Shown here piece by piece: positions 21,553 to 21,830 of a stretch of DNA of 64,000 bases (its first letter is position 1; each line of letters opens with the position of its first letter). The notes under the pieces are model-generated. The model ran no database searches, had not been told where the DNA came from, and saw nothing but the letters and a program-made list of their open reading frames with translations. Both the position numbers and the translations under genes were made by a program. Location of the stretch: assembly GCA_951406725.2 (NCBI GenBank), contig OX597831.1, positions 11,594,001-11,658,000 on the forward strand, in the 5' to 3' direction. The stretch is from Octopus vulgaris (lineage: Eukaryota).

Positions 21553-21830
21553 GTAAAAAATACAAACTGGGACAAGAACGTGAAACATTTAGAAGACGAT
21601 ACAAAAAACACGGACGTGACATTCGAAGCCTTCAATCTTCAGTCAAGAACCGGATCATCTTCGCAATTTCGGTTGATTAATCTTGAGATTGCTCCGATCT
21701 GGCCAACCCCAAAGGAAAATCGAAGCCTTCAATCTTCAGTCAAGAACCGGATCATCTTCGCAATTTCGGCTGATTAATCTTGAGATTGCTCCGATCTGGC
21801 CAACTCCAAAGGAAAATCTAAGCCAAGCGC
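21548..21830 (-). mobile_element. Short PLE-like element (family 1) with a 97-bp tandem duplication
   Basis: Units 21623-21719 and 21720-21816 differ at 2 positions; homolog at 46525-46910. Confidence 0.85.

Follow-up and report, generated by a model that had tools for sequence, protein, structure and literature searches.

In the genome of Octopus vulgaris, a TA-targeting, 5′-truncated Penelope-like element of several thousand dispersed copies carries, near its fixed 3′ end, a hammerhead motif whose conserved blocks follow each other in the permuted order S-G-C. The copies described here lie in a window of 64,000 nucleotides (the whole stretch of DNA that was analysed, from contig OX597831.1), and their motif is a strand-permuted hammerhead and not the result of chance. 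Judged from its sequence, the RNA is likely to be self-cutting, and there is a fair probability that it folds as a monomeric pseudoknot of four helices, with predicted cuts after C21687 and C21784, in which helix II is completed by a strand from upstream of the cut.

The block order itself is already known. The hammerhead has been split into blocks S, G and C, and type SGC was validated by in vitro cleavage with compensatory mutants (Eckert et al., 2023, PMC10085705, here and below as far as its accessible text goes); no tandem dimer is needed to account for this order. Type CSG has weaker support, from two sequences, and the non-circular hammerheads came from metatranscriptomes and metagenomes, a single GCS candidate being reported from the genomes of known organisms. 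Like types SGC and CSG, the window motif combines a permuted order, S-G-C, with a full catalytic core, a short S-to-G linker joining helices I and II, and a fourth helix that bridges them. Unlike those types, it is present in thousands of copies in an animal genome and, whereas the published model places the helix II strand directly after CUGANGA, this strand is here best found upstream of block S. According to a literature search, what is new is that the motif is genomic and stands in the 3′ UTR of Naiad retrotransposons, and that helix II and the bridging helix (the brace) are best supplied from upstream of the cut; the literature searched, subscription papers and bioRxiv supplements aside, held no description of permuted hammerheads in Naiads or in animal genomes.

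The permuted core and its conservation

The window lies in a microsatellite-rich genome of 2.8 Gb and contains a tandem at 21623-21824, with a unit of 97 bp, 2.1 copies and 97% matches. Read on the minus strand, each unit consists of GCAAU-C-UCAAGA, UUAA and UCA(A/G)CC-GAAA-UUGC in its first half and, after a spacer, of UCUUGA-CUGAAGA-UUGA, which gives a helix III of 5 bp and a helix I of 6 bp. An earlier note on this DNA had described the tandem, the motif strands and the scissile C of each unit (21784 and 21687), all of which were found where it placed them, and had recognised a strand-permuted hammerhead of order X-Z-Y, which corresponds to S-G-C. Its premise that natural hammerheads are known only as circular permutations does not hold, since X-Z-Y is type SGC, which cleaves in vitro (PMC10085705). 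The features of the window are as follows:

21549..21830, minus strand: family A copy, a non-coding, 5′-truncated Penelope-like element in which a 97-bp segment is duplicated internally (ends approximate, estimated against loci L002-L030)
21733..21805, minus strand: predicted upper ribozyme unit; an A at upstream position 10.1 gives an A-C mismatch
21636..21708, minus strand: predicted lower ribozyme unit, bounded by the upstream helix II strand and A9, in which each of the four helices can form
21703..21708, minus strand: upstream helix II strand (10.x), 6 bp with 21676-21671
21696..21702, minus strand: 5′ strand of the brace (I-II interaction) helix, partner 21656-21650
21681..21692, minus strand: block S, comprising a helix III strand, the AUC triplet (predicted cut after C21687) and a helix I strand
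21663..21676, minus strand: block G, comprising the 11.x strand, GAAA and a helix III strand
21636..21648, minus strand: helix I strand and CUGAAGA core
21627..21630, minus strand: alternative downstream helix II partner, 5 nt past A9
21720..21727, minus strand: duplication junction, with 7 of its 8 bases common to 21817-21824, read directly
46521..46910, minus strand: second copy, of a younger subfamily (family B) of the same element (ends approximate)

The 3′ end of the family A copy adjoins (CA)n/(TA)n. The family B copy holds the third, divergent copy of the motif (46610-46626), with a compensatory change in helix III; its predicted ribozyme occupies about 46614-46686, with a cut expected after 46665. 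The open reading frames of the window include no coding partner near the motif. As separate observations, two other TA-inserted repeat fragments on the minus strand (21100-21200 and 21350-21410) are minimal type-I-like hammerhead remnants, with a short helix II hairpin, GAAA and an altered CUGANGA, and an open frame of 412 codons on the plus strand (56515-57753) resembles part of a putative non-LTR reverse transcriptase, of which it would encode the C-terminal half, ending in a zinc finger.

The core nucleotides CUGANGA, GAAA and UH are all present, helices I and III abut them, and the S-G-C order with its short S-G linker is that of type SGC and not a circular permutation of S-C-G, as in types I to III. 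A gathering-threshold scan of the window with Rfam returned 0 matches, and nested folding gave z values of 0.56 to 0.82 for the monomers and 0.16 for the dimer, both blanks being expected because the helices cross. A descriptor requiring the core, at least 5 bp of helix I and at least 4 bp of helix III found 163 SGC, 3 GCS and 3 CGS matches over 911 kb, a sample enriched by choosing loci for these families, as against 0 in reversed sequence and 0 in each of five shuffles. Genome-wide, 4,115 matches to the exact A/B core pattern were counted, and 0 to the reversed control; the helix I variants taken family by family have 4,115 and 567 exact matches, with controls of 0. When the core was left free (twelve free positions), CUGANGA was kept by 94 of the 100 first-listed copies, the six exceptions all being different single cases, while the 5 nt that follow it vary in 50 of the 100 (both counted by eye). 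The free variation of those 5 nt was the reason for rejecting an alternative core register on the second GA after CUGA. The catalytic positions are conserved across families whose stems are unrelated, and N7 and H17 vary as they do in working hammerheads.

Covariation was examined in 21 hand-picked A-like copies, of which 15 are gapped at two helix III pairs. Helices I and III are paired in 100% of scored cells, with two-sided changes at 4 of 6 pairs in helix I and at 2 of 6 in helix III, in support of the strand-permuted hammerhead of the earlier note. The helix score was reached by 0 of 500 shuffles, a comparison that related sequences can exceed without any structure, as the tool itself warns, and slid control helices were 17-46% paired.

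Source of helix II and the brace

In contrast to helices I and III, helix II can be drawn in more than one way. The register adjoining A9 (UUGA/UCAG), put first by the earlier note, was the weakest of the three tested in the A-like copies, with 75% of cells paired and no G-C pair. The variant with a CC bulge fails in family F and in recurrent A subfamilies. The other two registers are a downstream one, closed by G-C 5 nt after A9 (89% paired, no two-sided change), and an upstream one, whose strand lies 21-28 nt 5′ of the cut (84% paired, one two-sided change in one sequence). The G10.1-C11.1 closing pair is G-C in 18 of 21 A-like copies upstream and in 17 of 21 downstream. An intact block C with a helix II strand 1-2 nt from A9, as in type SGC, is absent from family A. 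The A-like copies by themselves give the upstream register no advantage over the downstream one.

Nor do copy counts separate them, the downstream partner being about as frequent as the upstream one in this genome when G-U pairs are counted. Partners of at least 4 bp, downstream versus upstream, were present in 41 versus 44 of 48 copies of families A/B, 27 versus 23 of 28 of F, 5 versus 7 of 8 of C, 10 versus 8 of 16 of D and 8 versus 9 of 10 of N; the smallest groups gave 0 versus 1 of 2 (G), 1 versus 0 of 1 (E) and 0 versus 0 of 1 (N2), and a control window of equal width gave counts of 5, 0, 0, 0 and 9. The two units of the window divide as well: the helix II duplex of the lower unit has –6.0 kcal/mol with the upstream partner versus –1.6 with the downstream one, whereas in the upper unit, which shares the A at upstream 10.1 with a recurrent A subfamily, the values are –3.7 and –5.0, so that the downstream partner is the more stable there.

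These figures leave some room for an ordinary type SGC hammerhead, in which A9 would be followed by an insertion of 5 nt and helix II would form with the downstream GG(C/U)U, or in which the RNA would alternate between the two partners; the high pairing of the downstream register in the A-like copies, its presence in most copies of A/B, F, C, D and N and the better duplex of the upper unit all speak for it. We nevertheless regard it as unlikely. Besides showing no two-sided change, the downstream register is broken in family G, does not track the covariation of family C and is absent from cnidarian, ctenophore and squid consensi, and the known insertions between CUGANGA and the stems are at most 1-2 nt long in the accessible text of Eckert et al. 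(2023, PMC10085705). What favours the upstream partner is its fixed offset within each family, the covariation in family C (two compensatory classes of 6 and 6 among 22 copies, with 3 of the 22 discordant and 7 single variants), the stronger duplexes (the upstream one is the more stable in 7 of 8 copies) and the other species described below.

The brace is formed by the strand that comes immediately after the upstream helix II partner and by the linker that precedes helix I; it is the equivalent of the "I" helix of type SGC. As in that type, the distal ends of helices I and II are bridged; here the second strand comes from upstream and not from the 3′ tail. In the A-like copies the brace is paired in 88% of cells, with two-sided changes at 5 of 7 pairs, and a brace of at least 5 bp is present in 42 of 48 A/B, 20 of 28 F, 8 of 8 C, 15 of 16 D, 6 of 10 N, 2 of 2 G and 0 of 1 E copies. 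We infer that helix II and the brace are best supplied by the strand upstream of the cut, which would leave the backbone open between A9 and G10.1. The earlier note missed both the upstream partner and this fourth helix, yet its fallback, a monomer pseudoknot with a short linker joining helices I and II, is the better of its two readings. The self-complementarity of GAUUAAUC to which it pointed is present in families A/B and is confined to them.

The host element and the Naiad retrotransposons

Families A and B are non-coding units of 740-860 bp; the longest ATG frames in units of 737 and 862 bp have 84 and 35 codons. Among 100 unselected family A copies, 83 run into a microsatellite 28-46 nt past the 3′ anchor, while the 5′ ends are variable (those beyond –100 were left out as unreliable through subfamily divergence) and some copies carry inversions. 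Family B shows 100% identity over 161 bp in 40 of 40 scored copies and occurs in head-to-tail units of 855 bp. The fixed 3′ end in a microsatellite, the variable 5′ truncation, the tandem and inverted copies and the lack of an ORF are those of a non-autonomous Penelope-like element, an assignment drawn from the match with the layout described in the accessible text of Craig et al. (2021, PMC8557442), in which Naiads share the (TA)n targets, the 5′ truncation and the head-to-tail and inverted copies. The descriptor revealed further S-G-C families in the flanks, namely C, D, F, G, E and N, with 1,921 candidates for C, 3,659 for D and 567 exact matches for F.

Three further observations concern the sequences around these families. 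The starts of units A and B (L018, L023, L040) show a splice-donor-like motif and, after it, an extended run of pyrimidines, which recalls the intron in the 5′ UTR of Penelope-like elements. Between 45 and 77% of the family B words of L040:1215-1775 occur in the sequencing runs of five organisms, which suggests that the family is common to related species. Finally, a repeat in L207 (+2191, –1392) and L248 (–1329) has the core in the canonical order, C then G, with helix II strands of the same five pairs as family A, by shared ancestry or convergence.

Non-LTR retrozymes, which are thought to derive from Penelope-like elements, are likewise non-autonomous, hammerhead-bearing monomers that form tandems (bioRxiv 10.64898/2026.07.22.740005; PMC7229834). 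In the accessible parts of these sources they are defined by type I hammerheads and were searched for with type I models only; the window motif is not of type I, and its element lacks a type I hammerhead per unit.

A partner was sought in 30 GIY-YIG loci, 30 Naiad reverse transcriptase (RT) loci and 20 longer stretches, and no nucleotide link between units A/B and an RT- or endonuclease-bearing element was found among 82 loci. Most Naiad RT matches in the genome are short or broken; the Neptune-type ORFs include intact ones of 753-782 aa, which have no S-G-C motif of their own. Two apparent links were rejected: the S-G-C motif in the Neptune-type locus L234 is a separate nested insertion, and in L191 the RT fragment that neighbours a family A copy lies in antisense orientation, with (TA)n in between. 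As an aside, five intact Neptune-type ORFs (L233 and L235-L238; C18, C10, C12, C16, C4) have 3′ UTRs that end about 80 nt after a hairpin plus GAAA; a variant core, UUGAYAA instead of CUGANGA, precedes the hairpin, and these may be hammerhead variants.

Of a Naiad ORF, which has GIY-YIG at the N terminus and RT at the C terminus, an RT fragment is linked to family N only, and none to A/B. At locus L138/L201 this fragment, recognised by an RVT_1 match that falls short of the Pfam cut-off (E 1.3e-5), is followed by a 3′ UTR, by the motif in sense orientation and by (TA)n. The published Octopus Naiad 3′ motif, which has 212 exact 20-mer matches in the genome, shows the same four-helix wiring as the window motif. 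Unlike Naiads, families A/B are non-coding, are 740-860 bp long and have no sequence link to a Naiad ORF. We infer that their element is a non-autonomous Penelope-like unit, probably related to Naiads and mobilised by a separate partner.

Naiads are reported to have no canonical hammerhead, only an "HHR_core" or "HHR_half_core" being flagged, and in some of them the other half stands 35-50 nt away from the core or half core (accessible text of Craig et al., 2021, PMC8557442). The same scrambling in the published Naiads would explain this report. The last 270-340 nt of 49 of the 54 consensi of that paper, with three upstream passages, were read by eye, not computed, and nine consensi showed the core-opened wiring: three from Acropora (in A. 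millepora, helix II 6 bp, brace 10, helix III 13, helix I 6), Clytia Naiad-3 (4, 8, 5, 5 in the same order), Morbakka Naiad-2 (5, 7, 6, 4), the Beroe Naiad (6, 15, 7, 2), two from Octopus (6, 5, 5, 6) and one from Euprymna, with one mismatch in its upstream helix II. Read in this way, the upstream partner is clean in the Acropora (3), Clytia, Morbakka and Beroe consensi, and no usable partner after A9 was seen in these or in Euprymna. Seven nematode consensi are clean type CSG with a long bridging helix, from Haemonchus, Heligmosomoides, Nippostrongylus (3), Ascaris (Naiad_Asuum, assigned by file order, before Naiad_Lpol) and a Pristionchus entry; the visible part of the remaining 33 gave nothing resolvable by eye. 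Apart from these, the 3′ end of Naiad_Ptep shows S-G-C order with helices I and III and what looks like a helix II hairpin within the S-to-G linker, which may be a further way of dividing block C, and the partly visible ostracod entries look similar; several bivalve and hemichordate Naiad 3′ ends share another conserved, structured-looking motif without a hammerhead core.

On this basis, the balance tilts slightly towards the view that Naiads of ctenophores, cnidarians, nematodes and molluscs carry active non-circular hammerheads, including a seventh natural wiring in which the core strand would end at A9 and G10.1 would come from the 5′ end of the motif, and that these would be among the most numerous hammerheads of such genomes and invisible to current search models. 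The search patterns of Eckert et al. (2023) require CUGAUGA(U)G (accessible text, PMC10085705).

Predicted cleavage and its biological meaning

The proposed mechanism is that the motif, which lies about 140 nt before the element's fixed 3′ end, would fold into a hammerhead as a pseudoknotted monomer, the G10.1 strand coming from upstream of the cut, which would correspond to a type SGC/CSG topology with its ends between A9 and G10.1. Cutting of read-through or tandem transcripts may then set the 5′ ends of the templates, which a separate enzyme would copy. If the cleaved RNA is the template, copies should start just past the cut. In family A, 24 of 71 at-risk copies have their 5′ end at +1..+12, versus 4 of 47 at –12..0 (Fisher p = 0.0017) and 10 of 81 at +13..+25 (p = 0.002). 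This pile-up just after the predicted cut is a hint, with two competing causes, namely microhomology to the target, for which a TA-rich stretch at +6..+11 offers scope in family A, and polymerase stalling. A Naiad control of 100 copies did not reproduce it in the planned bin, with 5 of 85 ends at +1..+12 versus 9 of 80 at –12..0 (p = 0.27); 7 of the 9 upstream ends lie at –4..–1, three of them where the TA of the target is indistinguishable from that of the element. Contigs assembled from four public sequencing runs, presumably of RNA, showed no pile-up of starts or ends, a feature that contigs would not reveal in any case. Many copies continue past the site (by more than 60 nt in 36 of 100 for family A and in 60 of 100 for Naiads), which would be explained if cleavage were incomplete or regulated, or if the RNA were re-ligated.

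The same read-through, together with the lack of a clear pile-up in the Naiad control, would also fit an RNA that keeps the shape of a hammerhead as a signal for protein binding or reverse transcription and cleaves itself little or not at all. In a Penelope-like element of Anolis, the hammerhead needed protein in order to cut, and insertion in vitro did not depend on it (accessible text of PMC11167929). This explanation appears distinctly improbable given that the catalytic positions are kept across unrelated stems, with N7 and H17 varying as noted above, and that family A ends drop sharply at the predicted scissile bond.

The earlier note had gone further and proposed that the 97-bp tandem forms two interlocked ribozymes; a domain-swapped dimer between units would be a related arrangement. 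Where units are identical, strands of one copy can necessarily pair with those of another, and whole-element tandems exist. Some small hammerheads associated with Penelope elements are reported to cleave as dimers. Either arrangement is nonetheless very improbable here. A 202-bp query gave 2,810 candidates, and among the best 40 of these the whole dimer was matched by the window only, the other 39 covering at most 112 of the 202 bases. Where matches among the first 100 listed lie close together, they are 435-860 bp apart, never 97 bp. The dimer model omits the upstream helix II strand and the brace, and SGC and CSG RNAs cleave as single transcribed units (PMC10085705, whose accessible text does not address their oligomeric state). 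The doubling of the 97-bp unit appears to be a local accident of a single copy, and the 7 bases shared by the junction 8-mers suggest a single slip, probably a one-off slip of the template without special function. Chance complementarity within an amplified repeat is hardly credible: copies of one family have a common ancestry, which makes copy number alone no test, but the four pairings recur in at least four stem sets of this genome that are unrelated in sequence, as well as in consensi from three phyla, with controls of 0.

If the RNAs cleave as the monomeric four-helix reading predicts, non-circular hammerhead permutations would be a multi-thousand-copy feature of animal genomes and not a rarity of viroid-like metatranscriptomes, and the block model with its six orders would need a seventh, core-opened wiring. 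The nematode Naiads, as far as their accessible consensi go, would be the first genomic examples of type CSG, with covariation. The stated exception of the hammerhead-less Naiads would then fall, and the role of Penelope-type ribozymes would become testable in the Naiad clade.
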